Virus record (IMG/VR): IMGVR_UViG_2778261391_000006
Coordinates: 1-16,991 of that record
Direction: 5' to 3' (one strand)
From: a virus
Lineage: Duplodnaviria; Heunggongvirae; Uroviricota; Caudoviricetes
DNA: 16,991 bases
Shown here one piece after another: positions 1-16,991 of the stretch. Below the pieces are notes generated by a model, which searched no databases, was not told the DNA's origin, and was given only the letters and a program-made list of their open reading frames with translations. A program made the position numbers and the translations under genes. The stretch's first letter is position 1; each line of letters opens with the position of its first letter.

Positions 1-378
1 ATGATTTTTAGGGATAGCTTGAGAGTATTACCTTATGGTCGAGTAGATAATGATTTCTTCCAGATAGAAGAAAGACGTTCATGGAATGCAGGGCGATATT
101 ATTGGTCTAATAGAAGGATTTTTGGTTATATTGGAATTACTCAATCCAGTAATAAAGAGCTGAAAGATAAGTCGGGGAGAGAGGGATTCATAAGAAACCA
201 GGCTGCAAGAGAACTGAAAACTATTATATCTAATTTGTTAACTGAACTTGCTGATAGATTTTTTGGTTCACGTTCTGATGACCGTAAAGAGCTTTTAGAA
301 CAAGTTAAGCGTGAAAAAGAGTTAAGAAAATCTGCTCAACAACAAGCTCGAAAATCAACACAAAAAAGTTTTTCATAA
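1..378 (+). CDS. Hypothetical protein, 3' end of an ORF that continues upstream of the window; possibly the N-terminal (sensor) part of the downstream kinase-like gene
   Basis: Open frame from the window edge to TAA at 376-378, in the same frame as ORF 382-1719. The downstream ORF has no convincing start or RBS until ATG ~565. No recognisable motif in these 125 aa. Confidence 0.4.
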   Translation: MIFRDSLRVLPYGRVDNDFFQIEERRSWNAGRYYWSNRRIFGYIGITQSSNKELKDKSGREGFIRNQAARELKTIISNLLTELADRFFGSRSDDRKELLEQVKREKELRKSAQQQARKSTQKSFS

Positions 379-381
379 GCT

Positions 382-1719: not shown

Positions 1720-1720
1720 T

Positions 1721-3469
1721 ATGACAGTGGCAAATTATAATTCTCTTGTCCAGAAAACTTTCTGCGAAAATGCAATTCGTTCCGTTGTCATGATTGATGA
1801 CGATTTTCTGACGTATTCTGAATCAATCAGGGCGTTGAATAACGAAGTTGATTTAGACTACAACAAAATTGACTCATCTAAACGAGCCGCTACTCTTGAG
1901 AGCTTTTTTCAATCTAAAAATATGATTTGTGATGTTGACAATGGTTCTGTTAATTTCGATGTGGATCGGATTAGAAAATCAGATCTTATTATTGTAGATT
2001 ATCATCTTGATAATAATGCACCTGATAAAACACTTAAACTATTACAAGATTTGAAAGACTCCGATCATTTAAATATGATTGTAATATATACTAGAGAGAA
2101 TTTAGAAACGGTTTGGATGCAGATATCATCGACTCTCAAAGGTGCTCTGGATATCAACAGCTTGATCATTGACTACGATAATGAAGATGTCCAAAGTTAT
2201 TGGGAAGACGTTGTATTACCGAACTTAAATGATAATGGTAATAAAGCTCTCACAAGAGATGAAACAATAGCCTATATTAAAGACAGTAAGCCTTGTAGAA
2301 GAATTAAAAGATTAATACATGATGATGCTGTGTTGGAGGATCAAAAGGATAAAAACTTCATTGCAAAAATGATTGCAGAATATGCTGTGTCTAGAAATGC
2401 AATTATTTCTAGCAACACATCTGGCAATGTCATTCGGGGTGATGAAAGCGGAGTAAAATGGATTCAATGTGGTAATATCTTTGTCTCCCTATTTCATAAG
2501 GTTCAAGATGATCATGAAAACGATGGAGATAGGATTTGGCAAACTCTCAATGATTCTCTCATTGAATGGAAACCATCTTATTATCAGTTAATAAAATCTG
2601 AAATTCAGAATGCAATCGAAGCTGAGGCTTTATCTTTTGTAAATCATTTGGCTAACGATCATTACGGTCAAGCTGCGTGGTTAAATGAGATATTAAAATC
2701 AGACTCGCCTGATATTAGATGTAGAAATATTGACTTTGTATTTGGTAATTTATCAGAAGAGCTTTATCAAAGACTTAAAAATAATAATACGCTGGATGAA
2801 TTTATCAAAAGTGTTTTTGATAGCTATTCAAATGAATACGCTAACAGCGGAGTTGCTGCATTGCTCCAATATTGCTCTTCAAAAATGGATCTGCCATCAA
2901 ATAATGATACTTATCACGAAATGTATCATGCTTTAAATATGAATTTGTCTTCAAAGAATTTTGAAGATGGTCATATTTCTACTGGCACTATTTTCTTTGA
3001 TACAGAGTCGAACAAATGGTATTTATGTGTATCTGCGGCATGTGATTTGGTTCCTACTCAGGGTAACGACCCTCACCATGTAAGATTAAGTCCGCACAGG
3101 CTCATTAAAGTTCTGGAGCTTTTTAACGCCAGTCAGAGTAAAGCATTGCCATTTGCTGAACATTCGAAATATATATATGTAATGCATAAAAATCAAAGAA
3201 AATATCTCTCTATTTTCGAAGGGGATAAAACGCTTCCTGTTGTTGATTATATGGTGGTGTTGAATCATGGAACAACAGTTGATGGCGAAGAAAAAAATAT
3301 TATTTCTGCCGTGTTTTTAAGTAATATGGATGGCAACGTGCAAAATGTTCCTGTCCGACTCAAACTTAAATCTCAACTGAGAACTGGTTATGCAGAAAGA
3401 TATCAGGCTATAGCGTCTCAGTATAGCTCAAGGATTGGTGTGGATTATGTATCAATGATGCTACCATAA
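1721..3469 (+). CDS. Response-regulator-like protein: N-terminal receiver (REC)-like domain fused to a ~430-aa uncharacterised C-terminal domain
   Basis: ATG 1721 preceded by GGAG (1710-1713) at 7-nt spacing; alternative ATG at 1703 has no RBS. REC-like pattern: acidic VVMIDDD strand, candidate phospho-acceptor Asp in DLIIVDYHLDNNAPDKTLKLLQDL, then NMIVIYTRE (Thr position). I recognise no motif in the C-terminal domain. Stop TAA 3467-3469. Confidence 0.65.
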   Translation: MTVANYNSLVQKTFCENAIRSVVMIDDDFLTYSESIRALNNEVDLDYNKIDSSKRAATLESFFQSKNMICDVDNGSVNFDVDRIRKSDLIIVDYHLDNNAPDKTLKLLQDLKDSDHLNMIVIYTRENLETVWMQISSTLKGALDINSLIIDYDNEDVQSYWEDVVLPNLNDNGNKALTRDETIAYIKDSKPCRRIKRLIHDDAVLEDQKDKNFIAKMIAEYAVSRNAIISSNTSGNVIRGDESGVKWIQCGNIFVSLFHKVQDDHENDGDRIWQTLNDSLIEWKPSYYQLIKSEIQNAIEAEALSFVNHLANDHYGQAAWLNEILKSDSPDIRCRNIDFVFGNLSEELYQRLKNNNTLDEFIKSVFDSYSNEYANSGVAALLQYCSSKMDLPSNNDTYHEMYHALNMNLSSKNFEDGHISTGTIFFDTESNKWYLCVSAACDLVPTQGNDPHHVRLSPHRLIKVLELFNASQSKALPFAEHSKYIYVMHKNQRKYLSIFEGDKTLPVVDYMVVLNHGTTVDGEEKNIISAVFLSNMDGNVQNVPVRLKLKSQLRTGYAERYQAIASQYSSRIGVDYVSMMLP

Positions 3470-3482
3470 TTATTATATTTTA

Positions 3483-3523
3483 GGCGTGGTGATTTTTTTT
3501 CGCCATGCCTATTTTATATTTAT
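3483..3523. terminator. Putative bidirectional terminator between convergent genes
   Basis: Imperfect inverted repeat AGGCGTGG (3483-3490) / CCATGCCT (3504-3511) with a T-rich loop, followed by a T/A-rich tract; lies between the convergent stops at 3469 (+) and 3541 (-). Confidence 0.3.
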
Positions 3524-3540
3524 CATCACAATGATGTTGT

Positions 3541-3957
3541 TTATTTTTGTTTAAGTCTTCTAAGCTTCATGCATTCTAATGAGAATAATAATAGAGTTGT
3601 GCTGTATATAAAGCCAGAGTTAGTTAATAACTTTAAATTTAATGCTTCAGGATTTTCACTGAGAAAGTGAAAGGCATAAACTAAGTATACAGCTAAAGTA
3701 GCCGTTCCAATTGTTGGTCCAATATCGCCTTGATCATGAGGTTCAAGGTTTACATTGAACTTGAAGATTAGCCATTCAAATCCCCAAGTAAAAAAAACAA
3801 CTAATATCATGGCTGCGAATAATTTCGCGATGTTATCTGCTGATGGATTCATCAGAACAGATTGTTTCTGAAAAAATTCACAAAGTGAGAGTCCGAAAAA
3901 AATAAAAAAAAGTGGTCTGGAACTAAATTTTTCAAAAACTTTGAATAGGGTTTCCAT
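3541..3957 (-). CDS. Small multi-pass membrane protein (138 aa), function unknown
   Basis: ATG at 3955-3957 with GAAGG-type RBS ~9 nt upstream; three to four hydrophobic helix-length segments (LFFIFFGLSL, AAMILVVFFTWGFEWLIF, TATLAVYLVYAFHFL, FIYSTTLLLFSL). Starts 38 bp downstream of the integrase stop on the same strand. Confidence 0.5.
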   Translation of the reverse strand: METLFKVFEKFSSRPLFFIFFGLSLCEFFQKQSVLMNPSADNIAKLFAAMILVVFFTWGFEWLIFKFNVNLEPHDQGDIGPTIGTATLAVYLVYAFHFLSENPEALNLKLLTNSGFIYSTTLLLFSLECMKLRRLKQK

Positions 3958-3995
3958 TTTCTTTACCTTCAGGATTATATTAGCTATTCTGATAC

Positions 3996-5225
3996 TTAGG
4001 CTACCAGAGCATTTGATCTTTGAGCTTGAACGTAATCACTCCACCATTGCATCAAACTCTGTCGCTCTATCAGATATTCTGCACGATTGTATGCTGCGAT
4101 AATTTCATCTTTTTTCGAGTGGGCAAGCGCTGCCTCAAGAACTTCAGCTCTGAATTTACCAGACTCCTCTGCCGCTGTTCGTGCAATAGAACGCATACCG
4201 TGAGCTACAAGCTCGCCTCCGAACCCCATTCGGATGATAGCTGCGTTGGCTGTTTGTTCATGCATATGATTAAGAGGCGCTTTTATGCTGGGGAAAACCC
4301 ATTCTCTATGCCCACTTATTGATTTCATTAATTCAAGGATGCGCAAAGCTTCTTTACTCAAAGGAACTTTGTGAAGCTTTTTCATTTTCATGAAATCAGC
4401 AGGAATGTTCCAAATGCTGTTGGTTGTATCAATATCAGACCACCTTGCGCGAACGGCTTCACCCGGACGAACCCATGTCAACAATTGCCATTCAATTAGC
4501 ATACGTGTTTCCAACCGGATTGACGCATTCGTCAAAGATTCCATAAACCTTGGCAATTCGCTTGGGGGAAGGGCAGGCATATTTTGCTTTTTTGGTTTAC
4601 TGAATCTTTGACCAAGGTTGTCAGCCGGGTTGAACTCAATAAGTTCTTCAGTAGCTGCCCACCGGAAGATTTCATTCAGACGTGAAATGATACGGCGTAG
4701 AGTTTCCAATACGCCTCGTTGCTCAATAGGATCAAGGTGTTGTTTTAAGAGCTTAGGTCGGATCTCATTGATAGGGACATTACCCAGACCGGGAAAGACA
4801 TTTCTCTCTAAGCTGCGCCAGATGTCTGCTGCATGGTCTTGTGAGATACCTGATGTCTTTACCTTCTCATCTAACCATTTCCGCGCTACGGCTTGGAGAG
4901 TGTGCTCAGTAGCACTCTTTAATGCCTTCGCCTTATCGTTGTTATGGATTTGGGGATCAACACCATTTGCCAGAAAGGAGAGATATTCATCACGTAAGGC
5001 TCTGGCTCTTGCAAGGGTAAGGTGAGGATATGTCCCAAGGCTCATTTTGGTTCTTTTCTTGCTCACTGGTACTGCATACCTGAAATACCAATTTTTCTTG
5101 CCTCCTTTCGCCAAAGGAGCGATTCGTAGAATCAGACCATCACCGTCAAACAAGTTGATTTCTTTATCGGCTGGCTTGGTGCTTTTGATTTCAGTGTCAG
5201 TGAGCTTCTTAGCGATTTTTGCCAT
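3996..5225 (-). CDS. int: P4-family tyrosine integrase (site-specific recombinase)
   Basis: N-terminal arm-binding-type region (KLTDTEIKSTKPADK...DGDGLILRI...WYFRY); C-terminal catalytic region with HxxR (LVAHGMRSIA) and Tyr motif (AAYNRAEYL). ATG 5225 has a GAGGG RBS; the ORF could also start at ATG 5267 (no RBS). Confidence 0.9.
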   Translation of the reverse strand: MAKIAKKLTDTEIKSTKPADKEINLFDGDGLILRIAPLAKGGKKNWYFRYAVPVSKKRTKMSLGTYPHLTLARARALRDEYLSFLANGVDPQIHNNDKAKALKSATEHTLQAVARKWLDEKVKTSGISQDHAADIWRSLERNVFPGLGNVPINEIRPKLLKQHLDPIEQRGVLETLRRIISRLNEIFRWAATEELIEFNPADNLGQRFSKPKKQNMPALPPSELPRFMESLTNASIRLETRMLIEWQLLTWVRPGEAVRARWSDIDTTNSIWNIPADFMKMKKLHKVPLSKEALRILELMKSISGHREWVFPSIKAPLNHMHEQTANAAIIRMGFGGELVAHGMRSIARTAAEESGKFRAEVLEAALAHSKKDEIIAAYNRAEYLIERQSLMQWWSDYVQAQRSNALVA

Positions 5226-5390
5226 TTTGGGACCCTCGGTTTTTGGACCCTTCTTAGTGGGTCCCATTCAGGGTGCCATAACTCGTAGTTCTCAGCAATT
5301 CTCACTGGACGACAATAGACGTAAAAAAGCCCGCAGAGCTTGTGCTGTGTGGGCTTAGTAGACTTCATTGAACTTCAAACAACTAAAAAG

Positions 5391-5412
5391 TGGTGGGCTG
5401 GCGGAGTTTGAA
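5391..5412 (-). other. tRNA/tmRNA 3'-end-like motif (candidate att core) between the integrase 5' end and crr
   Basis: Minus-strand reading TTCAAACTCCGCCAGCCCACCA ends in CCA and resembles, with a few indels, the T-arm/acceptor 3' end of tmRNA as I remember it. It lies ~165 bp upstream of the int start, where P4-type att sites sit. Not a complete tRNA. Confidence 0.3.
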
Positions 5413-5559
5413 TAAATATTGTATTGCTTTGATTTTTAATGATTTTGTTTAATTCATTTTTTGTGCGTATACCTAATCGTATACCAATGGTTGTAAGTTA
5501 ATGTGAAATGAAAGCGCATTTTTACTTGGATTGATGCTATATCGTACAGGAAAAAAATT

Positions 5560-5860
5560 TTTTTTCGAAAGAACTGTTCACACTGTTCACCTTTCTGTTT
5601 TCTCCTTTTATTTCAGAGTGATAGGTGGTGAATAATGGGTGAAGGGTGAACATTCGATTCTTCACCTCCGGCATTCTGCCGGTGTGACTTGTGCAGGGGA
5701 TTAATTTCCCGTGCTGAAATCATACCGGAAGAAAAAAAGTTTTTTTTGATTTGATTGTTCACACTGTTCACCTTTCATTTTTCTCTTTTGATTTCAGTGT
5801 GATAACGGGGGAATATACGGTGAAGGGTGAACACTGGATTGTTCACCTTCGGGGGATGTC
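5560..5860. repeat. P4-type cis replication region (crr): two imperfect direct repeats, each carrying TGTTCACC-type iterons
   Basis: Repeat 1 iterons at 5576-5583, 5585-5592 and inverted GGTGAACA at 5645-5652; repeat 2 at 5756-5763, 5765-5772, 5826-5833 and 5840-5847. Units are ~180 bp apart with the same internal order. TGTTCACC is the octamer bound by P4 alpha protein. Confidence 0.8.
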
Positions 5861-5863
5861 GGG

Positions 5864-5891
5864 ATAAAAAAAAGACCGGCAGATGCCGGTC
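5864..5891 (-). terminator. Rho-independent terminator of the leftward operon, just downstream of the alpha stop
   Basis: Minus-strand hairpin GACCGGC-ATCT-GCCGGTC (5874-5891) followed by a U8 tract (plus-strand A-run 5866-5873), 7 nt after the alpha stop codon at 5899-5901. Confidence 0.55.
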
Positions 5892-5898
5892 AGGTGGG

Positions 5899-8232
5899 TC
5901 AGGTTGTTGCAGGGGCGTCACATTTTGGCAGCCAGTCGCCGTAGCTTTCCTCTTTCAGCGTCAGGTTGGTCTGTATCCCCTGTTTGGTATGGCGCTTCTC
6001 GTAATTCAGTCCGTATTCCTTCAGCATCACCGGCAGCCCCAGCCCGAACATTTTCAGACTGAGTACATTCCGGTAGCCGTTTGCCTCCATGTAGGCCAGA
6101 TAGGCGTGATAGAGGTATTTACGGTAATTGCGCGGGATGATACTGGCGTTCCCCATATACATGCCGCTGGTCTGCGGCAGGGTTTCCAGATAGCCGATAA
6201 AATCAAACGTCGGGTCGGCATCCCGTTTGATGTTCAGTGCCTCGTCTGAGTTCTGCTGGGACTGAAGCAGTGACCGGGCGAGCATCGGGTCGCTGAACTT
6301 CTGCATCAGGTGACGCACGATGACCGCCAGCTCGCGGGTGATTTTGTCCTTAAGCTGCGGGTCGCGCTCCTGCGGGGCTATCTGTTCCGGGAAGTGAATA
6401 ATCACCCGCCGGCGTGACACGCCGCCGCTGCGGTCGGTGAAGCGCATCGGGTTATTGTTCACGGCCAGAATCACCGCCGGGATATGCGTGGAGTACGCAT
6501 CCCGGTATTTCGGGTCCACGGACACCGCATCGCCGCCGGTGATGGCCTTGAGTCCGGCACCGTCGCCGCTCCATTTTTCCTGGTCCGGCAGGCGTATCAG
6601 TGAGAAGCCAGTTAACGCGGCACGTTCACGCGGGGATTCCAGCGTCTCGATGGTGGCCGACGTGGCGTTATCCTCCCCGGCCAGCAGGGTGGCTATTTCG
6701 GCCATGATACTTTTGCCGCTGCCGCCAGGACCGGTCACCTCCAGAAAGAGCTGCCAGTCGTAGCGGTTTGCCAGCACCATAAACAGTGCGGCCAGAATCA
6801 CGTCGCGTTTTTCCGCACGGCCACCGGCGGCACGGTCAAGCCAGCGCCAGAACGCGGGGGCGTGGGTCTCCAGCGTTTCACCGTCCACCGGCGGGGTGAA
6901 ATCCACATCGCACAGGGTGCGCATCCAGTGTGACGGACTGTGCGGGTGGAACGTGCCGTTCTGCGTGTCGAGCACGCCGTTACGAAAGCCAATCAGGCGG
7001 CGGGAGGGGGCTTCCTGCTGCGGAATAATCAGCTTCAGGGTGTCCACCACGGAGGCCACCTTCCCGGAGGAGAACGGCGCGCGCAGACGCTGAAACAGCC
7101 CGGCCACATCCCGGGCAAAGTCCTGTGGCGGCAGCACCTTCCAGACACCATTTTCATAACGGGACAGAAGCTGGCCGTTGGCATCGACCGCGAGCGCCTC
7201 GCCGTAATGCTCATAGATACGCATGGCCTTTTCGCTGGTACTCATGGCGGAAAACTCTGCTTCGCTCATGGTGTCGAACGGGCTTTCAGCCGGTGGCCGG
7301 ATGGCATCATAAATGGCCTTACGGGTGGCCTCCCCGCCGTACTGCGTGAAGGCATCATTCCAGTCACCGAAGACCGGCGGCAGGGCAACAACACCTTCAC
7401 ACGCATCTGCGGCTGCGGCGGCTTTTTTCTGGCCGTCACCGCTGAGGTCACGGTCTGCGGCAAGGACAATCTGACAGGCCGGATGCTTCTGCCGGGCAAG
7501 GCTGGCCAGAGAAAGGAGGTTCACGGAAGAAAGCGCCACCATCACCGTTTCCCCGGTCAGGTGATGCACGGTAAGTGCGGTCGCGTATCCCTCCGCTATC
7601 CACAGACGTTTTCCGGCCTGATTCTGTCCTTCAAGGGTGTGACAGGTGCCCCTGACCTGTCCGCCTTTCAGGGTGCGCTTACGGCCGTCAGCACTGATTA
7701 ACTGAAGGTTAACCAGTTCGCCGCTGTCGTCATACAGTGGCACCACAAGGTCACCGGCGCGCCAGCTCACGCCACCGGCTCTGTGTGTGCCGGTCAGCAT
7801 CCGGCATTCCCGGTCGGGAAAGCCCTTGCGGGTCAGGTAGGCGTTACCGGTTCCGGGCCGGGTTTTTGCCATCAGGGTTTGTGCCAGTGCGGCGGCGTTC
7901 TTCCGGGCAGCGTCTGTTTCAGCACCGGCGGCGGCCGTCACTGCCGGGTCAGCCGGGGGCAGGCTGCCGGTCACGGCAGCCACCTTTGCGGCCGCGTCGG
8001 ACGGGGAAACACCAAACACCTTTTCAACCAGTTTCAGGCCGTCACCGGCACCACACTGATTGCAGTACCAGGTGCCGCGCCCCTCCCTGTCATCAAAACG
8101 GAAGCGGTCACTCCCGCCACAGACCGGACAGGGCTGATGACGGTTCTTCAGCACCTGAATCCCCAGCGCCGGGAGAATACGCGGCCAGTGGCCGAGCGCA
8201 TGGCTGACGGTGGCGGTTACGTTCATTTTCAT
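5899..8232 (-). CDS. alpha: P4 alpha-type replication protein (primase-helicase with origin-binding domain), 777 aa
   Basis: Zinc-binding motif CPVCGG...CNQCG near the N-terminus; primase EGYATA motif (WIAEGYATALT); Walker A GPGGSGKS; AAGGAGA RBS before ATG 8232. Length equals P4 alpha; iterons of the type it binds are present at crr and ori. Confidence 0.95.
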   Translation of the reverse strand: MKMNVTATVSHALGHWPRILPALGIQVLKNRHQPCPVCGGSDRFRFDDREGRGTWYCNQCGAGDGLKLVEKVFGVSPSDAAAKVAAVTGSLPPADPAVTAAAGAETDAARKNAAALAQTLMAKTRPGTGNAYLTRKGFPDRECRMLTGTHRAGGVSWRAGDLVVPLYDDSGELVNLQLISADGRKRTLKGGQVRGTCHTLEGQNQAGKRLWIAEGYATALTVHHLTGETVMVALSSVNLLSLASLARQKHPACQIVLAADRDLSGDGQKKAAAAADACEGVVALPPVFGDWNDAFTQYGGEATRKAIYDAIRPPAESPFDTMSEAEFSAMSTSEKAMRIYEHYGEALAVDANGQLLSRYENGVWKVLPPQDFARDVAGLFQRLRAPFSSGKVASVVDTLKLIIPQQEAPSRRLIGFRNGVLDTQNGTFHPHSPSHWMRTLCDVDFTPPVDGETLETHAPAFWRWLDRAAGGRAEKRDVILAALFMVLANRYDWQLFLEVTGPGGSGKSIMAEIATLLAGEDNATSATIETLESPRERAALTGFSLIRLPDQEKWSGDGAGLKAITGGDAVSVDPKYRDAYSTHIPAVILAVNNNPMRFTDRSGGVSRRRVIIHFPEQIAPQERDPQLKDKITRELAVIVRHLMQKFSDPMLARSLLQSQQNSDEALNIKRDADPTFDFIGYLETLPQTSGMYMGNASIIPRNYRKYLYHAYLAYMEANGYRNVLSLKMFGLGLPVMLKEYGLNYEKRHTKQGIQTNLTLKEESYGDWLPKCDAPATT

Positions 8233-8246
8233 GGTGTTGTTCTCCT

Positions 8247-8567
8247 TCAGTGCAGTACCGGCGCTTTTATGTGACGGGCACAGAGTTCATCCATCACAAC
8301 CAGCCCGAGAAAGGACAGCGACGGCGCTGCCTTCAGGGGGCCGGATTCCATTAAATCTTCCAGCAGGGCACAGGCTATCTGACGCCCTTTTTCCTCACCG
8401 TGCTGGCGCAGATAAAAGCCTTCCAGCTCAGCGGCGATGGCCGCCTCCAGTGATTCAAGGGTGAGATGCGGGTAGCGGTGCTGACGTTCGCACACGGTCA
8501 GCCAGGCACAGGCGACAGCGCGACGGTAAAGGGCTGCGCGTAAGACGGGCGGTAAGGGTGTTTTCAT
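8247..8567 (-). CDS. Hypothetical protein, 106 aa, in the position and size of P4 orf106
   Basis: ATG 8565-8567 with strong GGGAGGAAA RBS; ends 14 bp before the alpha start on the same strand. Confidence 0.6.
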
Positions 8568-8702
8568 TTGCTTTCCTCCCTGTGACAGATGACTGCATTC
8601 CGTGCCGGTTGCATTAACTGATAAGGCATATCTGCGTCTCCTGAAGACGTGCGTATCCCTGCGCGAATACGCACATTTAATTTTTCGGGTGTCGTTTTTT
8701 AA

Positions 8703-9158
8703 TTACAGATAATTGCGGTAACTGTTATCCGGGGTGATTTCCGGGTCAGGCTCCGTGCGGGGAATTTCCCGCCATTCCCGCGCCACCGGTGCCGCCCGGC
8801 TGACCGGAACAGTGTCCTGCGGGTAAATATCCAGATATTTCTCCCGCCATTTCTGTAATTCCGGGTCTCCGGCCATTTCTTTCAGTACCGCATGCCGGTT
8901 TACGGGGCTGCGTTTAAACAGGTCAGGACGGTCACAGGTAAATTCCCGCAGAAAACGCCCCAGCGGGATGTCTGTGGTGCGCCCGTCAGCGAGGATACGC
9001 ACAAGGATACTGAATTTACGGCGGTACGGGTTCCAGACAATGTCCGGGCAGCGGTACGGCATTTCCCACGGAATACCGTCTTCCAGAATGCCGACCACGG
9101 CCACATCGGGAAAACCGGCAGAACGGTAAATCTCACCGGGCTGGGGAAAATCAAACAT
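8703..9158 (-). CDS. Hypothetical protein, 151 aa, in the position and size of P4 orf151
   Basis: ATG 9156-9158 with GGAGA RBS; overlaps the epsilon stop by 8 nt, consistent with translational coupling in the left operon. Confidence 0.6.
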   Translation of the reverse strand: MFDFPQPGEIYRSAGFPDVAVVGILEDGIPWEMPYRCPDIVWNPYRRKFSILVRILADGRTTDIPLGRFLREFTCDRPDLFKRSPVNRHAVLKEMAGDPELQKWREKYLDIYPQDTVPVSRAAPVAREWREIPRTEPDPEITPDNSYRNYL

Positions 9159-9438
9159 GCGTCCTGTCTCCCCGGTCTTTCTGCTGGGCGAGAAAATCGC
9201 GGCACAGGCCTTTGGCTTTCAGCTCATTCAGCACAAAATCAATATCTTCATTCAGGTAGCTGAAAATATGCGGAATGTAGAGCTGATGCAGGCCGGAGAG
9301 TTCACGGTGAATCAAATCACCCCCAACAAACTGGGATACGGCGCTGGCGCGGTTGAGCTTATGGTAAGCCTCAATGCTGAGGTGTTCACGGGCGTCATGA
9401 CGCGCTGAGACGGTCTGAGGGGCTTTTTTATTACGCAC
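9151..9438 (-). CDS. epsilon: Probable epsilon-like protein (P2-repressor antagonist / derepression protein position), 95 aa
   Basis: ORF with GTG start and no internal Met, in the expected place between the immunity region and orf151. Assigned by synteny only. Confidence 0.45.
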
Positions 9439-10021
9439 GGGACACCCCCATCACCGGCAGACGGGCAGCAAGGGAGAGCACATAGTCACGGACAAGGGAA
9501 CGGCGGGCGCTGCGTTCATCACCGGCGACGGTGCGAAGCATACAGATACGGGGATGACGGTCTGCGCGACGGACAGCCGCAAACACAAAGACAAATTCAG
9601 GGTGTGAGGGGGTAAGGGTCGTAGCCATAAGGCAACCTCCGATAACAGCGTAAATGACGCTATCGCCGGAGTTCTCACGCTCGATGGCGATAGCCCAGAC
9701 GGGGGTGAGAATACCGGCGTTATCGGATACCGGCCAGCCCGAAGGCTGCCCCGCCTGAGCTACCATTGACTCAGTGGCATAACATGCGATTGCGAACAGG
9801 ATCATACCTGCACGGCAAACCACACGCCACACCATAATCTGGCGCTCTGTGGCGTTGATTGCGACACAAAAAAAGACGCATGGCGCGTCATATGTCGCCG
9901 ATAACATACTCGGGTTCTCACGCCCGGCTGCCGATTTTGCGGCAGCGGAAAAACTATATCCGCAAATGCCGGAAAAAGGCAAGCCAGAAAAAGGGAGTTT
10001 TTGCAGAGCGGGCATCATCAT
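9431..10021 (-). CDS. ORF in the left-operon leader/immunity region (kil/eta-equivalent position); boundaries uncertain
   Basis: Start ATG 10019-10021 overlaps the vis stop in an ATGA arrangement, but a good promoter candidate lies inside this ORF, so the real product may start further downstream or the frame may be a GC-rich artefact. Confidence 0.25.
9439..9945 (-). other. Leader/immunity region of the left operon, where a P4-type CI RNA and its complementary seq elements are expected
   Basis: Region between the candidate early promoter and the epsilon start. By P4 architecture the processed immunity RNA lies here; I could not place it by sequence. Confidence 0.3.
9953..9982 (-). promoter_or_regulatory. 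Candidate early leftward promoter (PLE-like), sigma70-type
   Basis: Minus-strand TTGCCT (-35, plus 9977-9982), 18-bp spacer, TATAGT (-10, plus 9953-9958); lies ~395 bp downstream of the candidate late promoter, matching the P4 PLL-PLE spacing. Confidence 0.4.
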
Positions 10022-10284
10022 GCGTCGTACCCCCGTTTGCGTCCGGCAATGCGCCCGGCCATCCATGCGGTGATTTCAGAGTGCAGCCAGGCCACATTTT
10101 TACCGCCAAGGCTCACCTGCGGTGGAAATTCCCCCTTACGGATAAGTTCATAGATGGTCGAGCGTGACAGGCCGCACAGGTGCATCACTTCCGGCAGACG
10201 TAAAAAACGCTCCTGTGTGATATCCGGCAGCGGAATCAGTGGCGTCACAGGGGCGGGAGACGGGGAAGAAAAAACAGCTTGCAT
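10018..10284 (-). CDS. vis: Vis / AlpA-family small DNA-binding regulator-excisionase, 88 aa
   Basis: AlpA-type HTH core [50 protein letters not shown]; ATG 10282-10284 with GAGGT RBS; first gene after the leftward late promoter, as in P4. Confidence 0.85.
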
Positions 10285-10386
10285 CGGGCTACCTCGTTAA
10301 TGTCCATACAGCACCGGATAAGTCCGTCCGGCTTCGGGTAGCGCTTTATTTTGTGAATATTTTTGGCAGACGCAACAGGGGGGATT

Positions 10387-10404
10387 TGTTCAGGCAGCCT
10401 TACA
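10387..10404 (-). promoter_or_regulatory. Late leftward promoter activator site (PLL-like), TGT-N12-ACA dyad
   Basis: TGT(10387-10389)-N12-ACA(10402-10404), about 100 bp upstream of the vis start; this dyad is the Ogr/Delta site of P2/P4 late promoters. Confidence 0.5.
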
Positions 10405-10563
10405 ATGGCTGTGTGTTTTTTATCCATCCGGACTGGAAGGGTCTCAAAGGGTTCTGAAGGACCTGGAATTTTTTATAGTGAAATACAAATTGTTTTTTCT
10501 TATTCATTCCCGGCGAATTAATAAAAACAAACAGTAGTAAACAGCACAAAAAGTCCATGAGCG

Positions 10564-10668
10564 GGTGAACAGTGGTGAACAGACGGTGAACAGTCATTAC
10601 TGCGATTGTTCACCCTTTAACTTACTGTATTACTTATCTTTTTTATTAAGGTGAACAGAGGTGAACAG
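10564..10668. repeat. P4-type origin of replication: six type I iterons around an AT-rich spacer
   Basis: GGTGAACAG at 10564-10572, 10574-10582, 10585-10593, 10650-10658, 10660-10668 and inverted TGTTCACC at 10607-10614; AT-rich stretch 10616-10649. Same octamer as in crr, ~4.9 kb away. Confidence 0.75.
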
Positions 10669-10746
10669 TAAAATATAAAAAAACAAACAGTAAGCCGGTT
10701 TTTCCTGCGACCTTTTCCTGGCTTGCCGGTGTGAGGATGAGTCTCC

Positions 10747-10764
10747 TGTGTCAGGGCTGGCACA
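10747..10764 (+). promoter_or_regulatory. Late rightward promoter activator site (Psid-like), TGT-N12-ACA dyad
   Basis: TGT(10747-10749)-N12-ACA(10762-10764), ~80 bp upstream of the sid ATG, the expected position for a -55-centred activator site. Confidence 0.55.
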
Positions 10765-10836
10765 TCTGCAATGCGTCGTGTTGTTGTCCGGTGTACGTCA
10801 CAATTTTCTTAACCTGAAGTGACGAGGAGCCGGAAA

Positions 10837-11571
10837 ATGTCTGACAACACCATCCCTGAATATCTGCAACCCGCACTGGCACAACTGGAAAAGGCCAGAG
10901 CCGCCCATCTTGAGAACGCCCGCCTGATGGATGAGACCGTCACGGCCATTGAACGGGCAGAGCAGGAAAAAAATGCGCTGGCGCAGGCCGACGGAAACGA
11001 CGCTGACGACTGGCGCACGGCCTTTCGTGCAGCCGGTGGTGTCCTGAGCGACGAGCTGAAACAGCGCCACATTGAGCGCGTGGCACGCCGGGAACTGGTA
11101 CAGGAATATGACAATCTGGCCGTGGTGCTGAATTTTGAACGCGAACGCCTGAAAGGGGCGTGTGACAGCACGGCCACCGCCTACCGGAAGGCACATCATC
11201 ACCTTCTGAGTCTGTATGCAGAGCATGAGCTGGAACACGCCCTGAATGAAACCTGTGAGGCGCTTGTCCGGGCAATGCATCTGAGCATTCTGGTACAGGA
11301 AAATCCGCTCGCCAACACCACCGGCCATCAGGGCTACGTCGCACCGGAAAAGGCTGTCATGCAGCAGGTGAAATCATCGCTGGAACAGAAAATTAAACAG
11401 ATGCAAATCAGCCTCACCGGCGAGCCGGTTCTCCGGCTGACCGGACTGTCAGCGGCAACACTTCCTCACATGGATTATGAGGTGGCAGGCACACCGGCAC
11501 AGCGCAAGGTGTGGCAGGACAAAATAGACCAGCAGGGAGCAGTGCTTAAGGCCAGAGGACTGCTGTCATGA
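10837..11571 (+). CDS. sid: Sid-type external capsid-size-determination scaffold protein, 244 aa
   Basis: ATG 10837 with GAGGAG RBS at 7-nt spacing (the track's 10819 start has no RBS); coiled-coil-rich; length and position match P4 Sid; stop overlaps the delta start (ATGA). Confidence 0.85.
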   Translation: MSDNTIPEYLQPALAQLEKARAAHLENARLMDETVTAIERAEQEKNALAQADGNDADDWRTAFRAAGGVLSDELKQRHIERVARRELVQEYDNLAVVLNFERERLKGACDSTATAYRKAHHHLLSLYAEHELEHALNETCEALVRAMHLSILVQENPLANTTGHQGYVAPEKAVMQQVKSSLEQKIKQMQISLTGEPVLRLTGLSAATLPHMDYEVAGTPAQRKVWQDKIDQQGAVLKARGLLS

Positions 11572-12068
11572 TTTACTGCCCGTCGTGTGGTCATGTTGCT
11601 CACACCCGCCGCGCACATTTCATGGACGATGGCACCAAGATAATGATTGCACAGTGCCGGAATATTTATTGCTCTGCGACATTTGAAGCGAGTGAAAGCT
11701 TTTTCTCTGACTGTAAAGATTCAGGAATGGAATACATTTCAGGCAAACAGAGATACCGCGATTCACTGACGTCAGCCTCCGGCAGTATGAAACGGCCGAA
11801 AAGAATGCTTGTTACCGGATATTGTTGTCGGAGATGTAAAGGCCTTGCACTGTCAAGAACATCGCGGCGTCTGTCTCAGGAAGTCACCGAGCGTTTTTAT
11901 GTGTGCACGGATCCGGGCTGTGGTCTGGTGTTTAAAACGCTTCAGACCATTAACCGTTTCATTGTCCGCCCGGTCACGCCGGACGAACTGGCAGAAAGCC
12001 TGCATGAAAAACAGGAACTGCCGCCAGTACGCTTAAAAACACAATCATATTCGCTGCGTCTGGAATGA
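11568..12068 (+). CDS. delta: Delta-type late transcriptional activator (tandem Ogr-like zinc-finger protein), 166 aa
   Basis: Two Ogr-like zinc-finger halves: CPSCGH...C...YC and CCRRCKG...C...C; translationally coupled to sid; length equals P4 Delta. Confidence 0.9.
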   Translation: MIYCPSCGHVAHTRRAHFMDDGTKIMIAQCRNIYCSATFEASESFFSDCKDSGMEYISGKQRYRDSLTSASGSMKRPKRMLVTGYCCRRCKGLALSRTSRRLSQEVTERFYVCTDPGCGLVFKTLQTINRFIVRPVTPDELAESLHEKQELPPVRLKTQSYSLRLE

Positions 12069-12141
12069 GGGCTGCCGGTTAACACCGGCCGTCGCCGCAC
12101 ACCGTATTTTTATTCTTCAGCATGATGAGAAAGAGATAACG

Positions 12142-12714
12142 ATGGAAAGCACAGCCTTACAGCAGGCCTTTGACACCTGTCAGAATAACAAAGCAGCATG
12201 GCTGCAACGCAAAAATGAGCTGGCAGCGGCCGAACAGGAATACCTGCGGCTTCTGTCAGGAGAAGGCAGAAACGTCAGTCGCCTGGACGAATTACGCAAT
12301 ATTATCGAAGTCAGAAAATGGCAGGTGAATCAGGCCGCTGGTCGTTATATTCGTTCGCATGAAGCCGTTCAGCACATCAGCATCCGCGACCGGCTGAATG
12401 ATTTTATGCAGCAGCACGGCACAGCACTGGCGGCGGCACTGGCACCGGAGCTGATGGGCTACAGTGAGCTGACGGCCATTGCCCGAAACTGTGCCATACA
12501 GCGTGCCACAGATGCCCTGCGTGAAGCCCTTCTGTCCTGGCTTGCGAAGGGGGAAAAAATTAATTATTCCGCACAGGATAGCGACATTTTAACGACCATC
12601 GGATTCAGGCCTGACGCGGCTTCGGTGGACGACAGCCGTGAAAAATTTACCCCTGCGCAGAACATGATTTTTTCGCGTAAAAGTGCGCAACTGGCATCAC
12701 GTCAGTCTGTGTAA
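12142..12714 (+). CDS. psu: Psu-type polarity suppression / capsid decoration protein, 190 aa
   Basis: Third gene of the sid-delta-psu late operon; length and position match P4 Psu; followed by cos. Confidence 0.8.
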   Translation: MESTALQQAFDTCQNNKAAWLQRKNELAAAEQEYLRLLSGEGRNVSRLDELRNIIEVRKWQVNQAAGRYIRSHEAVQHISIRDRLNDFMQQHGTALAAALAPELMGYSELTAIARNCAIQRATDALREALLSWLAKGEKINYSAQDSDILTTIGFRPDAASVDDSREKFTPAQNMIFSRKSAQLASRQSV

Positions 12715-12740
12715 AATTTCCCGAAAATCCGCCTGTTTTT

Positions 12741-12777
12741 ACTGAAAAAAGCCATGCATCGATAAGGTGCATGGCTT
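12741..12777 (-). terminator. Putative terminator (hairpin plus T-tract on the minus strand) between psu and cos
   Basis: Perfect 10-bp stem AAGCCATGCA / TGCATGGCTT (12749-12758 / 12768-12777) with a 9-nt loop; on the minus strand it is followed by TTTTTT (plus-strand A-run 12745-12750). Could stop the integrase-cargo transcript and possibly psu read-through. Confidence 0.4.
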
Positions 12778-12878
12778 TGCATGCGTTTCCCTGCCTCATT
12801 TTCTGCAGACCGCGCCATTCCCGGCGCGGTCTGAGCGTGTCAGTGCAACTGCATTAAAACCGCCCCGCAAAGCGTGCG

Positions 12879-12897
12879 GGCGAGGCGGGGAAAGCAC
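12879..12897. other. cos site: P2/P4-type 19-nt cohesive end sequence
   Basis: Exact GGCGAGGCGGGGAAAGCAC, which I recall as the P2/P4 cohesive end, at the position expected from P4 (just after psu). Confidence 0.8.
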
Positions 12898-12911
12898 TGC
12901 GCGTAGCGATA

Positions 12912-14684
12912 TTAAATATCCCACAATTTTTCTAAATCAAGAGTATCGCTGTTAGGAGCATTTTCCTCAGCTAATCTGTCGATTTGAACAAGTAATGGGG
13001 TGTGGAAAGCTGTTCCTGAAACTATACACCCACCAGGAGGAAGTGTTGGAATTAGTGATCTTGATGCCGCATCAAGGGTGCTTAAAGTATTTTTTAACAA
13101 AAACAAATCATTTTCGTTCACTAATCGATGAATAAAATAATTATGAAGTTGGGAAACAATTGTGGGAGAGATGTCAAAAGGTCGTTGACTCGAAATTGTA
13201 ACGAAGAACCCAAACTTCCTTCCCTCTTTTATTATTTCCTCAAATAACTCAAGCCTATAATCTTTCCATGTTTCCGCCTCTCTGACAGATGTTTCAGACA
13301 ATATGTTGTGTGCTTCATCTATAATTAGGTGGAAGCTTTCCTTTGTATTTTTAGATGACTTGTGCTCTAAGAATGAACATTTTGCAAGCATCATTGGAAT
13401 GGTTTTTTTGATTAATTGATTGCACTCTTTTAATGACACTATATATATAGGTTTTTTATTTTTTGTTTCGTTTCTGATATTAATTACTTTGGATAGGGCA
13501 GGAGTCATTGCCGTTATTTTATTAATTAGCGGATATATATGATCATATTGTACATAATTACGTGATACTGAATTAATTAGTTGTAGAATAGATCGGATTG
13601 CAACTTCATCAAAAACGCTGTTTAACTTAAACTTGGATTTATATGTTGCATCTAAAGCCTGTAAAGCATCTTCCATTTTATCAATGAAGTTGTATTTTGA
13701 GTGCAAATACTTATTTTGCCCAGAATGCCATGAGAATTGTGATAACTCTTCAAGTATTTTACCCTGTGCTCTCTCTGAAAAGTAAGGGGCAAGGCTTTTT
13801 AATAAATTTATTGTTTCCCTGTGTGGATTAGGAGAAAACATACTGTGGATAGTTGTTTGTAAGTAATCCTCCAATTTACCATTATATTTTTCTCTATTTT
13901 TAATTAAATGACTAAGAAATGGCTTTTGAGTTTTTTCAGTTGCAGAAAACAATACCGATAATAATTCATCATCCCAAAATTCATCATCAGTGAAAGTTAG
14001 TTTATCACCGGAATTCTTTGTGTTGAGATTGACTTGTTCGCACAAATCTGGAAATGACGTAGCAAATGTGCTGTATTCACCATTAAAATCAATCAAAACA
14101 AAACTTGATTTTGATATAACTCTTTCTTTTGTTGTTATAAGGTTTATTAGAGAGTGATAAAGTTTTGCAAGAGTGTTGGACTTGCCACTTCCAGTGTTTC
14201 CAAATATGCCTATGTGTGAATTAAAAATACCATTTATTGGTATGTTAATTGGCAACTCCTCTAACATAGATTTCCCTATGTTTATTAAAGGTGCTTTAGT
14301 GTTTTTGCTAAACTTATATATTTCTGATATCTTCTCGTCTGAAATTAAGTGTAAGCTGTCATTTATCATTGGTAAAAATTTTATACCGGAATAAAATGAA
14401 CTCTCAAAAAAATACCCTAAAATATTCAGTTCTACAAAACGGTCATATTTTTTTTGTTCAATTTCATCGCTTCTAATATTGATGTTTTCAACAATTTCTT
14501 CACCAATAATCTTTCCGACGATATCGTGATAACCTTTTTTAATCAAAACAAATTCATTTATAGAGATACCTCGTAGTATTTTACCTTTATGAAAGTATGT
14601 TGACTGAAAAAAGTCATGATTGATTTTGGCCCTTACTGTTGTGCCCTTTATTTGGGTAACATTACCAACAATTAGTTCTTCCAT
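12912..14684 (-). CDS. herA: HerA-like ATPase (HerA/FtsK-type), partner of the SIR2 protein in the SIR2-HerA (Nezha) defence system
   Basis: Walker A GIFGNTGSGKSNT; Walker B/DEAH LIIDEAHN; C-terminal RKFGFFVTISSQRPFDI-type segment typical of HerA; ATG 14684 with GGAGA RBS; overlaps the upstream SIR2 gene by 13 nt. Confidence 0.85.
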   Translation of the reverse strand: MEELIVGNVTQIKGTTVRAKINHDFFQSTYFHKGKILRGISINEFVLIKKGYHDIVGKIIGEEIVENINIRSDEIEQKKYDRFVELNILGYFFESSFYSGIKFLPMINDSLHLISDEKISEIYKFSKNTKAPLINIGKSMLEELPINIPINGIFNSHIGIFGNTGSGKSNTLAKLYHSLINLITTKERVISKSSFVLIDFNGEYSTFATSFPDLCEQVNLNTKNSGDKLTFTDDEFWDDELLSVLFSATEKTQKPFLSHLIKNREKYNGKLEDYLQTTIHSMFSPNPHRETINLLKSLAPYFSERAQGKILEELSQFSWHSGQNKYLHSKYNFIDKMEDALQALDATYKSKFKLNSVFDEVAIRSILQLINSVSRNYVQYDHIYPLINKITAMTPALSKVINIRNETKNKKPIYIVSLKECNQLIKKTIPMMLAKCSFLEHKSSKNTKESFHLIIDEAHNILSETSVREAETWKDYRLELFEEIIKEGRKFGFFVTISSQRPFDISPTIVSQLHNYFIHRLVNENDLFLLKNTLSTLDAASRSLIPTLPPGGCIVSGTAFHTPLLVQIDRLAEENAPNSDTLDLEKLWDI

Positions 14685-15787
14685 GTAATCCAATCTCCGT
14701 GTTCAGATCTAAATACTCTATCTATAAACGGTTTAAATGAAATTGTATGATCATCTTCTATAGGAAGAATATAGGTTATTCGTTGGTCATTGATAATGTG
14801 CTGTATACTTTCCATGCTGGATTTTGAGTAGCAAAAAACAAAGACCTTAAGAGTAGGGTTACTTAATGATCTTTTTATAATCTCACGTATGTGTTCATCT
14901 TGAAAAGAAAAACCAAAACAAATTAATACAGTTTGTGGTTTCTCTAATTCATAACTTAGCAATCGTAAACATTGGTAATAATGTTGTTGAAAAACAGTTT
15001 CAGAAAATTTTTCTTTAGTTGGGCTAACTATAGCTAAGTTGTTGTAATAAGATTTAAATTCTTGAAGTGTTTCTTGATCGCTTGTAGATAAATTTAAATA
15101 ACTAACGAGATTATCGCTTGTTTCGTTTAAGGTGGTGACTAAATCATTAATGTCTTTTTTTGTATCTAGTCTAAACTTTGGTGGTTCTTCTTGAGTGTAA
15201 TTAATACTAATCGTTTCATTAATATCTCTACACCAAGAAACAGAACCATGCATTTTTATTAAGTTTACTGTTGGAATTTCATGTTTGTACATATCATGCG
15301 TACCTTGATGCCAAGCAGTAATATGAAAATTACTAATGTTCAATTTCCGGCTTTTGAAACCTAGACCACCGTCATTGAAATGAAATGTTTTATTATTTAA
15401 AATATCATCAGCCGCAGTTTCGAAAAAAAGATCATAATTTGTTGTAAAAATATTCGCTCGCCTTATTTGATTTGCCCCTTTTTTCTCTAATAATTTGATT
15501 AGTTCATCAATAAAGTAGCTATAGTTTGCTAAAGTAGAATTATATTTTTTGTCTTCACTATTAGGTTTAACACAAAATGTTTTTCTAATGATATTATTGA
15601 AATAAGAACATAATATGAAGTCCTTGACACCCTCACAATCCTCATGTGTAAGTAATGTTTCATAAGTAGTGTTTTTATCTAGATAGAGAGTAGGAATATA
15701 TGAAGCAGAGGAGCCTGAGCCAAATAAAAAATTTATATTTTTATCATAGATATTTGAGGCTTTGCATGGAAAATCTTTATTATTCAT
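14672..15787 (-). CDS. SIR2-family (sirtuin-like NAD+-binding) protein, first gene of the SIR2-HerA defence operon
   Basis: Rossmann glycine loop FLFGSGSSASYIP; TTNYD motif (sirtuin TQNID-like); catalytic-His-type MHGS; ATG 15785-15787 with AAGGA RBS; starts 7 bp after the integrase stop. Confidence 0.85.
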   Translation of the reverse strand: MNNKDFPCKASNIYDKNINFLFGSGSSASYIPTLYLDKNTTYETLLTHEDCEGVKDFILCSYFNNIIRKTFCVKPNSEDKKYNSTLANYSYFIDELIKLLEKKGANQIRRANIFTTNYDLFFETAADDILNNKTFHFNDGGLGFKSRKLNISNFHITAWHQGTHDMYKHEIPTVNLIKMHGSVSWCRDINETISINYTQEEPPKFRLDTKKDINDLVTTLNETSDNLVSYLNLSTSDQETLQEFKSYYNNLAIVSPTKEKFSETVFQQHYYQCLRLLSYELEKPQTVLICFGFSFQDEHIREIIKRSLSNPTLKVFVFCYSKSSMESIQHIINDQRITYILPIEDDHTISFKPFIDRVFRSEHGDWITWKN

Positions 15788-15797
15788 CACTATATCC

Positions 15798-16991
15798 TTA
15801 TTTGTTTTTTGAAATGAAACTACCCCACCAATTCATAAGCTCTTTTCTTTGTTCCAAGTAGGTTGTTCGATTATATGCTCTTCTAACCTCATTTTTATCA
15901 CAATGGGAAAGTGCTGCTTCGATAATATCTGGATTTATACCAGCTTCATTCATTGCTGTACTTGCTATCGAACGCAGTCCGTGTGCAACCAACTTACCAC
16001 CATAACCGATGCGCTTTAAGGCTGCATTTGCCGTCTGACTGTTCATTGGTTGATTGGGGTTATTCCTGCTAGGAAAAATATATTCTCGATGTGAACTGAT
16101 TGGCTTCATAATTTCAAGAATATCTAATGTCTGAAGTGATAATGGAACAATATGTTCCCGCTTTGCCTTCATTCTATTGGCTGGTATTATCCATAGTTTA
16201 GCTTCGAAATCGATCTCTATCCACTTTGCATTGGAAGCTTCTGCAGGGCGTACAAGTGTTAAGAGTTGCCATTCAATCAAACAACGAGTTGGAATAGATA
16301 AATTAGACATTGTTATTGAACGCATGAGTTTCGGTAATTCTTCAGGTCTAAGCGTTGGCATGTGCTGTTTTTTAGGTTTTTCAAATGCCATACCAATGCC
16401 TGAAGCAGGGTTAGCATCTATCAGACCAGTATTAACAGCATAAATCATAATTTCATTAATACGTTGTACTAAACGACGAACAGTCTCAAGTGCCCCACGA
16501 GCTTTAATTGGCTCTAGGGCTTCAATTAATGTGCGGGCTTTTATTTCCTGAACAGGAATCTCACCGATAGCAGGGAAAATGTCCCTCTCTAAGGATCGCC
16601 ATATATCCTTTGCATAATCAGGTGTGACGTTATTGCTTTTTATGGCAAACCAATTTGTGGCAACTTTTGAAAAAATACTATCAATCGCAATCTGTTGATG
16701 TTCTGAGACTTGCTTACTGTATGTTTGTGGATCAATACCCCGGGCTAATAAGGAAAGATACTCAGCACGCACGTTTCTGGCCTCAGCCAGAGATAGGGCG
16801 GGGAACGTTCCTAAACTAATCATGGTTCTCTGTTTTGATACAGGCTTCTGGTATCGGAAACGCCACAACTTCCTTCCGTTCGTTTTTATGAGTAGAAAAA
16901 GCCCATCACCATCATGTAGCGTTAGATCCTTTTCAGTTGCTTTAGCACGTGATAGTTCAGTGTTAGTAAGAGGGCGTGTTGTACGTGCCAC
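15798..16991 (-). CDS. int: P4-family tyrosine integrase (second copy, distinct sequence); 5' end at or just beyond the window edge
   Basis: Same architecture as the first integrase (LTNTELSRAKATEKD...DGDGLFLLI...WRFRY; HxxR LVAHGLRSIA; Tyr motif RRAYNRTTYL) but clearly diverged. The frame is open to the window end, so the true start may lie outside. Confidence 0.9.
   Translation of the reverse strand: MARTTRPLTNTELSRAKATEKDLTLHDGDGLFLLIKTNGRKLWRFRYQKPVSKQRTMISLGTFPALSLAEARNVRAEYLSLLARGIDPQTYSKQVSEHQQIAIDSIFSKVATNWFAIKSNNVTPDYAKDIWRSLERDIFPAIGEIPVQEIKARTLIEALEPIKARGALETVRRLVQRINEIMIYAVNTGLIDANPASGIGMAFEKPKKQHMPTLRPEELPKLMRSITMSNLSIPTRCLIEWQLLTLVRPAEASNAKWIEIDFEAKLWIIPANRMKAKREHIVPLSLQTLDILEIMKPISSHREYIFPSRNNPNQPMNSQTANAALKRIGYGGKLVAHGLRSIASTAMNEAGINPDIIEAALSHCDKNEVRRAYNRTTYLEQRKELMNWWGSFISKNK

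Follow-up and report, generated by a model that had tools for sequence, protein, structure and literature searches.

The window considered here is a stretch of DNA of 16,991 nucleotides (nt), IMG/VR virus record IMGVR_UViG_2778261391_000006, in which two integrase genes bracket a core closely related to the P4 satellite. The window very probably belongs to an array in which two integrative elements stand in tandem at the 3′ end of Escherichia coli ssrA, the gene for transfer-messenger RNA (tmRNA). Its right element, from position 5391 to the window's end plus ~185 nt, is predicted to be a complete P4 satellite of 11.8 kilobases (kb) with its own integrase. Its left element, positions 1–5390, comes from a different ssrA-specific island, of which the integrase-proximal end remains; the distal part was removed by the insertion sequence IS3, and the element is not a P4-type satellite. 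Comparison with other E. coli genomes carries this reading, as these show all three states: the island alone, the satellite alone, and the two in tandem. The window itself was scanned using a six-frame list of open reading frames (ORFs), Pfam, PADLOC, PHROGs, NCBIfam, and Rfam.

Two integrases and the occupancy of ssrA

The initial annotation had described two P4-family integrases on the minus strand, clearly different in sequence and each with cargo genes downstream of it, and this description holds in every part.

3996–5225, minus strand: left integrase, 409 amino acids (aa), a predicted P4/CP4-57-type tyrosine recombinase of the older island; the ORF spans 3996–5267, with a likely ATG start at 5225, as in RefSeq relatives
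15798–16991, minus strand: right integrase, 397 aa, complete, with a GTG start at the window's final three bases; integrase of the satellite itself, predicted to be ssrA-specific

Both proteins contain the Pfam domains Arm-DNA-bind_3, Phage_int_M, and Phage_integrase (E-values 1e-19 to 1e-32), and both pass the 434-bit cut-off of NCBIfam PRK09692 (IntA/CP4-57 type), the left scoring 440.6 bits and the right 599.5. In alignments with each other and with P4 Int, both keep the catalytic Arg, His-x-x-Arg, His, and Tyr, and their motifs VRP, HGMRS/HGLRS, AH/SH, and AYNR align with VRS, HGFRT, SH, and AYIH of P4 Int. Domain architecture, score, and catalytic residues together mark both genes as predicted tyrosine integrases of the P4/CP4-57 type. 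Identity between the two proteins is 49%, and P4 Int shares 34% with either of them; IntA of the K-12 prophage CP4-57 (MG1655) stands closer to the right integrase (62% identity) than to the left (48%). A ‘DH5alpha’ record had raised the idea that the left integrase is K-12 IntA itself; this identification was rejected, as the record lacks the K-12 locus and an identity of only 48% separates the two proteins. Downstream, the right integrase is followed by SIR2 and HerA genes, and the left by an ORF of 138 aa and a pair encoding a HEF_HK ATPase and a Response_reg_2 protein.

Two complete E. coli genomes match the window from end to end (100% of its length), at 98.7% and 98.6% identity; in a third genome, 83% of the window is covered. 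STEC2017-197 (NZ_CP075663; comparison locus L001) is the closest complete genome, and here 184 nt separate the right integrase from ssrA, which is succeeded by smpB. On the right, a gene for a tRNA or tmRNA was to be sought: the window holds neither, and ssrA stands just outside, starting 185 nt past the window's end in this genome. Leftward of window position 1, STEC2017-197 has IS3, a 5′-truncated ygaQ-like amylase gene, and glaH. The right integrase directly adjoins ssrA in L001, L002, L006, and L011, and the same locus in K-12 holds the cryptic P4-like prophage CP4-57.

The three states of occupancy are readily distinguished. A synthetic satellite-free junction of 1404 nt, in which the left integrase 5′ region through ...CTAAAAAG is joined straight to ssrA, is matched at 100% identity over its whole 1404 nt by many complete genomes, and at a coverage of at least 80% by 958 genomes. 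In such island-only genomes the locus reads IS3, ATPase, Response_reg_2, 138-aa ORF, integrase, ssrA. The reciprocal state is found in strain Ec1120, where the order is ssrA, integrase, cargo, psu through alpha, pseudo-ssrA, and ypjA, and the left integrase is absent; MCJCHV-1 is similar. Genomes lacking one element or the other thus both exist, and the assignment of the right integrase to the satellite, made at the outset from gene order, is supported by Ec1120, which has a right-type integrase with the satellite alone at ssrA. The tandem state is represented by 67 genomes matching window positions 4900–6100 and by 56 genomes matching an 81-nt junction probe. This recurrence in 56–67 complete E. 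coli genomes also disposes of the idea that the two integrases stem from an assembly artefact or a recent duplication. Nothing beyond the presence of two genes of one family speaks for it; a protein identity of only 49% and an arrangement seen in dozens of independently finished genomes refute it, leaving it a negligible probability.

Longer arrays also occur. In O157:H7 strain 493/89 (L007, 14628–18748), what lies between the same left integrase (99% identical) and ssrA is a DUF4760 gene, a further integrase, and a lambdoid prophage. The lambdoid prophage is inserted deeper in ssrA and leaves a displaced fragment of 35 nt. Because the DUF4760 gene, the integrase, and the prophage part the left island from ssrA, the array in this strain has at least three elements.

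The junction between the elements

The two elements meet in the noncoding stretch between the left integrase and alpha, the relevant features of which are as follows.

5226–5898: noncoding stretch of ~670 nt between the left integrase and alpha
5229–5264: three GGACCC/GGGTCCC motifs, candidate arm-type sites of the left integrase; the same cluster lies by this integrase in L003 and L007
5322–5356, minus strand: predicted terminator hairpin, 82% similar to the terminator region by the real ssrA and contiguous with ssrA in L003 and L004
5391–5413: junction att site, a degenerate ssrA 3′ end reading TGGTGG-GCTGGCGG-AGTTTGAA; distal boundary of the satellite and meeting point of the two elements
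5466–5488: two GGTATAC motifs, predicted arm-type repeat of the satellite integrase on the alpha side (P arm); the sole occurrences of GGTATAC in the window

From left to right, the order is thus GGACCC motifs, terminator, core (5391–5413), GGTATAC motifs, crr repeats, and alpha terminator. The elements had been proposed to abut at about 5.3–5.5 kb, and alignment of junctions places their meeting point at 5391, within this interval; the junction at 5268–5560 has the island arm and terminator on one side of the pseudo-ssrA core and the satellite distal arm and crr on the other. BLAST breakpoints fall at window positions 5391, where the satellite ends, and 5412, where similarity to the real ssrA ends; the real gene reads TGGTGGAGCTGGCGGGAGTTGAA at its end. 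The left flank of the junction is identical to island-only genomes up to ...CTAAAAAG, immediately before TGGTGG, and on its right the flank shows full identity with the satellite's distal end as found where the satellite is alone. The hairpin at 5322–5356, judged by its likeness and position, would be the terminator of ssrA where the island abuts that gene, displaced here by the satellite.

A free attP site provides the counterpart to this junction. In the IMG/VR contig IMGVR_UViG_2600255186_000010 (L009, positions 7400–7760), attP reads AAGAGCAAG, TGGTGGAGCTGGCGG, and AGTCTGAATAA in direct succession, and is flanked on both sides by GGTATAC arm motifs; the integrase near it is 81% identical to the right integrase. 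The contig, 10.2 kb long, belongs to a related satellite and has both ends inside alpha, and presumably represents a circular or excised form that was assembled separately. Comparison of attP with ssrA shows the identity block common to both to be the terminal 15 nt of ssrA, which read TGGTGGAGCTGGCGG on the plus strand of the window. In L001, GGTATAC motifs cluster again between the right integrase and ssrA (32029–32064).

The order cos, cargo, int, att, crr, alpha that the initial annotation gave for P4 agrees with the annotation of X51522 (cos, gop/beta/cII, int, attP, crr, alpha), and the window junction mimics the int–attP–crr–alpha portion of the free P4 map because it is a hybrid of the integrase-proximal arm of the island and the distal arm of the satellite. 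This mimicry is the source of a second reading, namely that the left integrase is the true integrase of the satellite and the right one is hotspot cargo or belongs to some other island. The local order of left integrase, att-like site, crr, and alpha does copy the P4 map. However, the left integrase is missing from satellite-only genomes, which keep the right one at ssrA; island-only genomes contain it but not one P4 gene; and the GGTATAC motifs are found beside the right integrase and on the alpha side, the left integrase having GGACCC motifs instead. In the free attP of L009, moreover, alpha is joined to an integrase homologous to the right one. The comparative data refute this assignment, to which we give next to no credence.

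The junction core itself differs from expectation by a single base. An attP of the L009 type recombining with an intact ssrA predicts the junction TGGTGGAGCTGGCGGAGTTTGAA. This pristine sequence is found in MCJCHV-1 with a chromosomal flank, in six tandem genomes with an island flank (including ECC-1470, which has the same type of left integrase and different cargo), and in ~69 genomes having another left flank beside the satellite. The window junction is without the A of TGGTGGAGCTGGCGGAGTTTGAA, equivalent to tmRNA position T357, a base kept by both the L009 attP and the island-linked ssrA. Across genomes there are at least three junction alleles: the pristine one, one shorter by 1 nt (the window and K-12 psaA), and one shorter by 6 nt (L002, with five further bases gone). 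The alleles lie at window 5391–5413, L002 17380–17400, L011 14001–14046, and L010 1501–1523. The same one-base loss occurs at the far ends of K-12 CP4-57 (psaA) and of the Ec1120 satellite, that is, in different flank contexts. That the minus-one core is a direct product of recombination was considered and rejected; it fits neither crossover model, and the pristine junction is found elsewhere. Since other genomes hold the pristine junction, the window form is a secondary deletion, and the junction decays after integration.

The position of the missing base recalls CP4-57, the excision of which is reported to leave ssrA with the deletion dT357 (PMC10107115). If strand exchange takes place in GCTGGCGG, as this reported deletion implies, excision of the window satellite would inactivate tmRNA. 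It is conceivable, if rather doubtful, that excision does so and that a recurrent deletion, possibly integrase-associated or selected, couples induction of the satellite to a switch in ribosome rescue, or else locks the element in place. Island-only genomes with ssrA dT357, the footprint that satellite excision from a window-type array would leave, gave no full-length exact match in the E. coli collection. Four E. coli records contain partial matches of at least 99% identity to the ssrA-dT357 probe; these may be strains from which an ssrA-linked element has gone and in which the inactivating deletion is present.

The most parsimonious history of the tandem array begins with the older ssrA-specific island, which would have arrived first and supplied an ssrA 3′ end together with its terminator. 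The satellite would then have integrated into this island-supplied 3′ end, its CP4-57-type integrase recombining within the last 15 nt of ssrA, TGGTGGAGCTGGCGG. Integration would have pushed the island and its terminator copy 11.8 kb away from ssrA, and the junction core would later have lost the one base equivalent to T357.

Several points weigh against this account. The window contains neither ssrA nor any sequence to the left of its position 1, such that its chromosomal setting is borrowed from 98.7%-identical relatives and not taken from the source genome. A third copy of the ssrA 3′ end, as the far boundary of the left island, was not found in L001 or L003; the far att of the island appears to have been removed by IS3. 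The junction core is short of one base that is present in both reconstructed partner sites and, judged against these, is not a direct recombination product. Last, the junction alone does not show the order of arrival, as an island entering the distal pseudo-ssrA of a satellite gives the same junction.

The reverse order, with the satellite as first resident and later entry of the left island into the pseudo-ssrA at the satellite's distal end, is therefore to be weighed. The pristine junction sequence is the same under either order, and in pristine genomes the distal copy keeps the full 15-nt identity block. Yet this copy is without ssrA body sequence on one side of its core, and each satellite variant would require its own acquisition of the island with the same IS3 deletion. 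The distribution of the two elements bears on the matter: the island with identical IS3/ygaQ truncation is found at an identity of at least 99% in 560–586 genomes, about a tenth of which (56–67) also have a satellite, with varied cargo. Arrival of the island first is the parsimonious order, because the island with its one truncation is widespread while the satellites are few and diverse in cargo. Newcomers generally insert at the functional end of ssrA, which the island-first order fits. The reverse order is accordingly unlikely.

Composition of the island and the satellite

Base composition divides the window into three blocks, with a GC content of ~30–36% at 1–4000, 52–64% in the P4 core, and ~30% at 13000–16000. 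Besides its integrase, the left island contains three genes.

1–1719, plus strand: left cargo gene 1, HEF_HK/HATPase_c GHKL-type ATPase (Pfam HATPase_c 2.3e-11, HEF_HK 3.3e-07); a pseudogene in the window
1703–3469, plus strand: left cargo gene 2, Response_reg_2 receiver-like protein (Pfam PF19192, 3.7e-31); RefSeq relatives start at 1721
3541–3957, minus strand: 138-aa ORF, function not assigned (phrog_6556, 1e-70), directly downstream of the left integrase

The initial annotation took the left integrase and its cargo for the integrase-proximal end of a second element. This stands insofar as they belong to a separate island, which elsewhere abuts ssrA alone; the element is not a second P4 satellite. 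A second cos or psu sought to the left is not there, the relatives having IS3 and the truncated ygaQ-like gene in that place, and psu, sid, delta, alpha, and cos were likewise absent to the left of the left integrase in every relative examined. In L001–L004, the island consists of the integrase, the 138-aa ORF, and the two cargo genes, followed by IS3 and the truncated chromosomal gene. Where the island is longer, it includes Hxs, ABC-three-component genes, and a relaxase pseudogene, again without P4 genes. The 138-aa ORF accompanies the same left integrase despite other cargo in O157:H7 493/89, and is absent in ECC-1470.

The cargo of the island is, to all appearances, decaying. The ATPase gene has a nonsense change, GAA to TAA at 376–378, that is present in the window only (compared with L001 and L003). 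The gene would also be truncated at its 5′ end, because in relatives the frame stays open upstream right to the IS3 inverted repeat (L001, 14879–15001). An internal stop interrupts the Response_reg_2 gene of strain 89-3156. HEF_HK and Response_reg_2 are reported to form a two-component-like pair tied to restriction–modification systems as well as paraMORC ATPases (PMC8011034). The left cargo genes gave no match in PADLOC (version 2.0), and in NCBIfam weak histidine-kinase similarities alone. The low-GC pair at window 1–3469 may represent an uncharacterised defence module, truncated here.

The right element is collinear with P4 over most of its length, and has a low-GC cassette of two genes downstream of its integrase.

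5552–5852: crr, the P4 cis replication region; two 120-bp direct repeats aligning with the annotated P4 crr
5899–8232, minus strand: alpha primase–helicase, 777 aa (Pfam primase, Toprim, D5), 97% nt identity to P4
8247–10284, minus strand: P4 left operon and immunity region (Pfam DUF5375, Derepression, Phage_ASH, Phage_AlpA; P4 annotation)
8247–9438, minus strand: ORF106, ORF151, and epsilon (Derepression), part of the P4 left operon
9431–10066, minus strand: Ash/Icd-like ORF (Pfam Phage_ASH), overlapping the C4 immunity RNA and isrK
9683–9770, minus strand: C4 (CI) immunity RNA (Rfam C4, 76 bits; c4-a1b1 also matched)
9869–9946, minus strand: isrK (Rfam, 71 bits)
10018–10284, minus strand: ORF88/AlpA (Pfam Phage_AlpA)
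10819–12714, plus strand: sid, delta, and psu (phrog_6165 for sid, Ogr_Delta, Psu 1.3e-88), a predicted helper-exploitation operon, 97% identical to P4
12879–12897, plus strand: cos cohesive end GGCGAGGCGGGGAAAGCAC, an exact match to P4 bases 1–19
12912–14693, minus strand: HerA (PADLOC HerA, 1.1e-192)
14672–15790, minus strand: SIR2 (PADLOC SIR2, 4.1e-65)

Window positions 5552–12903 are 97.3% identical at the nt level to P4 (X51522) 4291–11624 continuing into 1–25. At one end the homology begins with P4 base 4291, exactly where the annotated crr starts, and at the other it extends past cos to window 12903 (P4 base 25). P4 bases 26–4290, with gop, beta, cII, int, and the leuX-type attP, are absent, and HerA, SIR2, the right integrase, and an ssrA-type att site are there instead. 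With breakpoints this sharp, at crr on one side and cos+25 on the other, the P4 arm comprising hotspot, integrase, and att appears to have been swapped as one block. The core set of P4-like satellites is nonetheless all present (integrase, psu, delta, sid, alpA, epsilon/ash, and alpha), as are a predicted P2/P4-type cos, a size apparently suited to the small capsid, crr/ori repeats, and the C4/CI RNA. From att to att the satellite measures 11,800 bp, versus 11,624 bp for P4. In STEC2017-197, sid (L001 25853–26586, corresponding to window 10819–11571) is annotated as frameshifted, a ‘glycoprotein 3’ pseudogene; the ORF is intact in the window.

The SIR2 and HerA genes lie on the same strand with an overlap of 22 nt, and their cassette (12912–15790) has a GC content of ~30%. 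By its PADLOC matches it is a predicted defence system in the psu–int hotspot of the satellite. The content of this hotspot differs among genomes while the rest of the element is kept, and includes AAA plus DUF4435 genes (PARIS-like; L002), a DEAD/DEAH helicase (L011), or two hypothetical genes.

Related systems and significance

Gene order relates the right element to P4 (X51522/NC_001609) throughout the run of crr, alpha, epsilon, immunity RNA, sid, delta, psu, and cos, and the sizes are similar (11.8 vs. 11.6 kb). The difference lies in the arm described above: the integrase is only 34% identical, and gop, beta, cII, int, and the leuX-type attP of P4 have been exchanged. CP4-57 of K-12 (intA through psaA) shares the integration site at the ssrA 3′ end and has a distal pseudo-ssrA, TGGTGG-GCTGGCGG-AGTYTGAA. 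Unlike the right element, a predicted complete P4 satellite, CP4-57 is a cryptic element of 22 kb without psu, sid, delta, alpha, and cos.

The stacking of islands at ssrA is reportedly the subject of a study by Williams from 2003. Islands stacked at this gene are described in Dehalococcoides (PMC3146451), and tandem elements, as well as mobile elements with their own integrase beside P4-like satellites, by de Sousa and Rocha (PMC8628076). As in other stacked ssrA islands, ssrA is followed by several integrase-bearing elements, with a copy of its 3′ end bounding each, and the make-up of the array varies with the strain. The present array differs in having two recognisable att copies only, the far end of the older island having been lost to IS3, and the Dehalococcoides islands differ in their use of serine recombinases. 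The psu–int region is a known defence hotspot of P4-like satellites, with SIR2 plus HerA among the listed systems (Rousset et al., 2022; PMC9122126); the variable low-GC cassette between cos/psu and integrase is one more instance of it, with no substantive difference.

Islands in tandem at ssrA, integrase exchange among P4-like satellites, and the presence of defence genes between psu and int have thus been documented before, and the arrangement in the window is an ordinary one. It adds one more case in which the P4 int, att, and hotspot arm was swapped as a block, and opens no long-standing question. A 2026 survey (PMC13586616) lists a minor ‘defence hotspot’ of P4-like elements between the primase and an att site; speculatively, in arrays whose junction att has decayed, as within window 5391–5898, cargo of the neighbouring island could be counted toward this primase–att hotspot. 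The window's chief value is as a worked example: elements integrating one after another at ssrA create a hybrid junction with the look of a free attP. Such a junction can mislead the delimitation of elements, in that the integrase and cargo of a neighbouring island are assigned to a P4-like satellite, or the wrong integrase is picked as the satellite's own.

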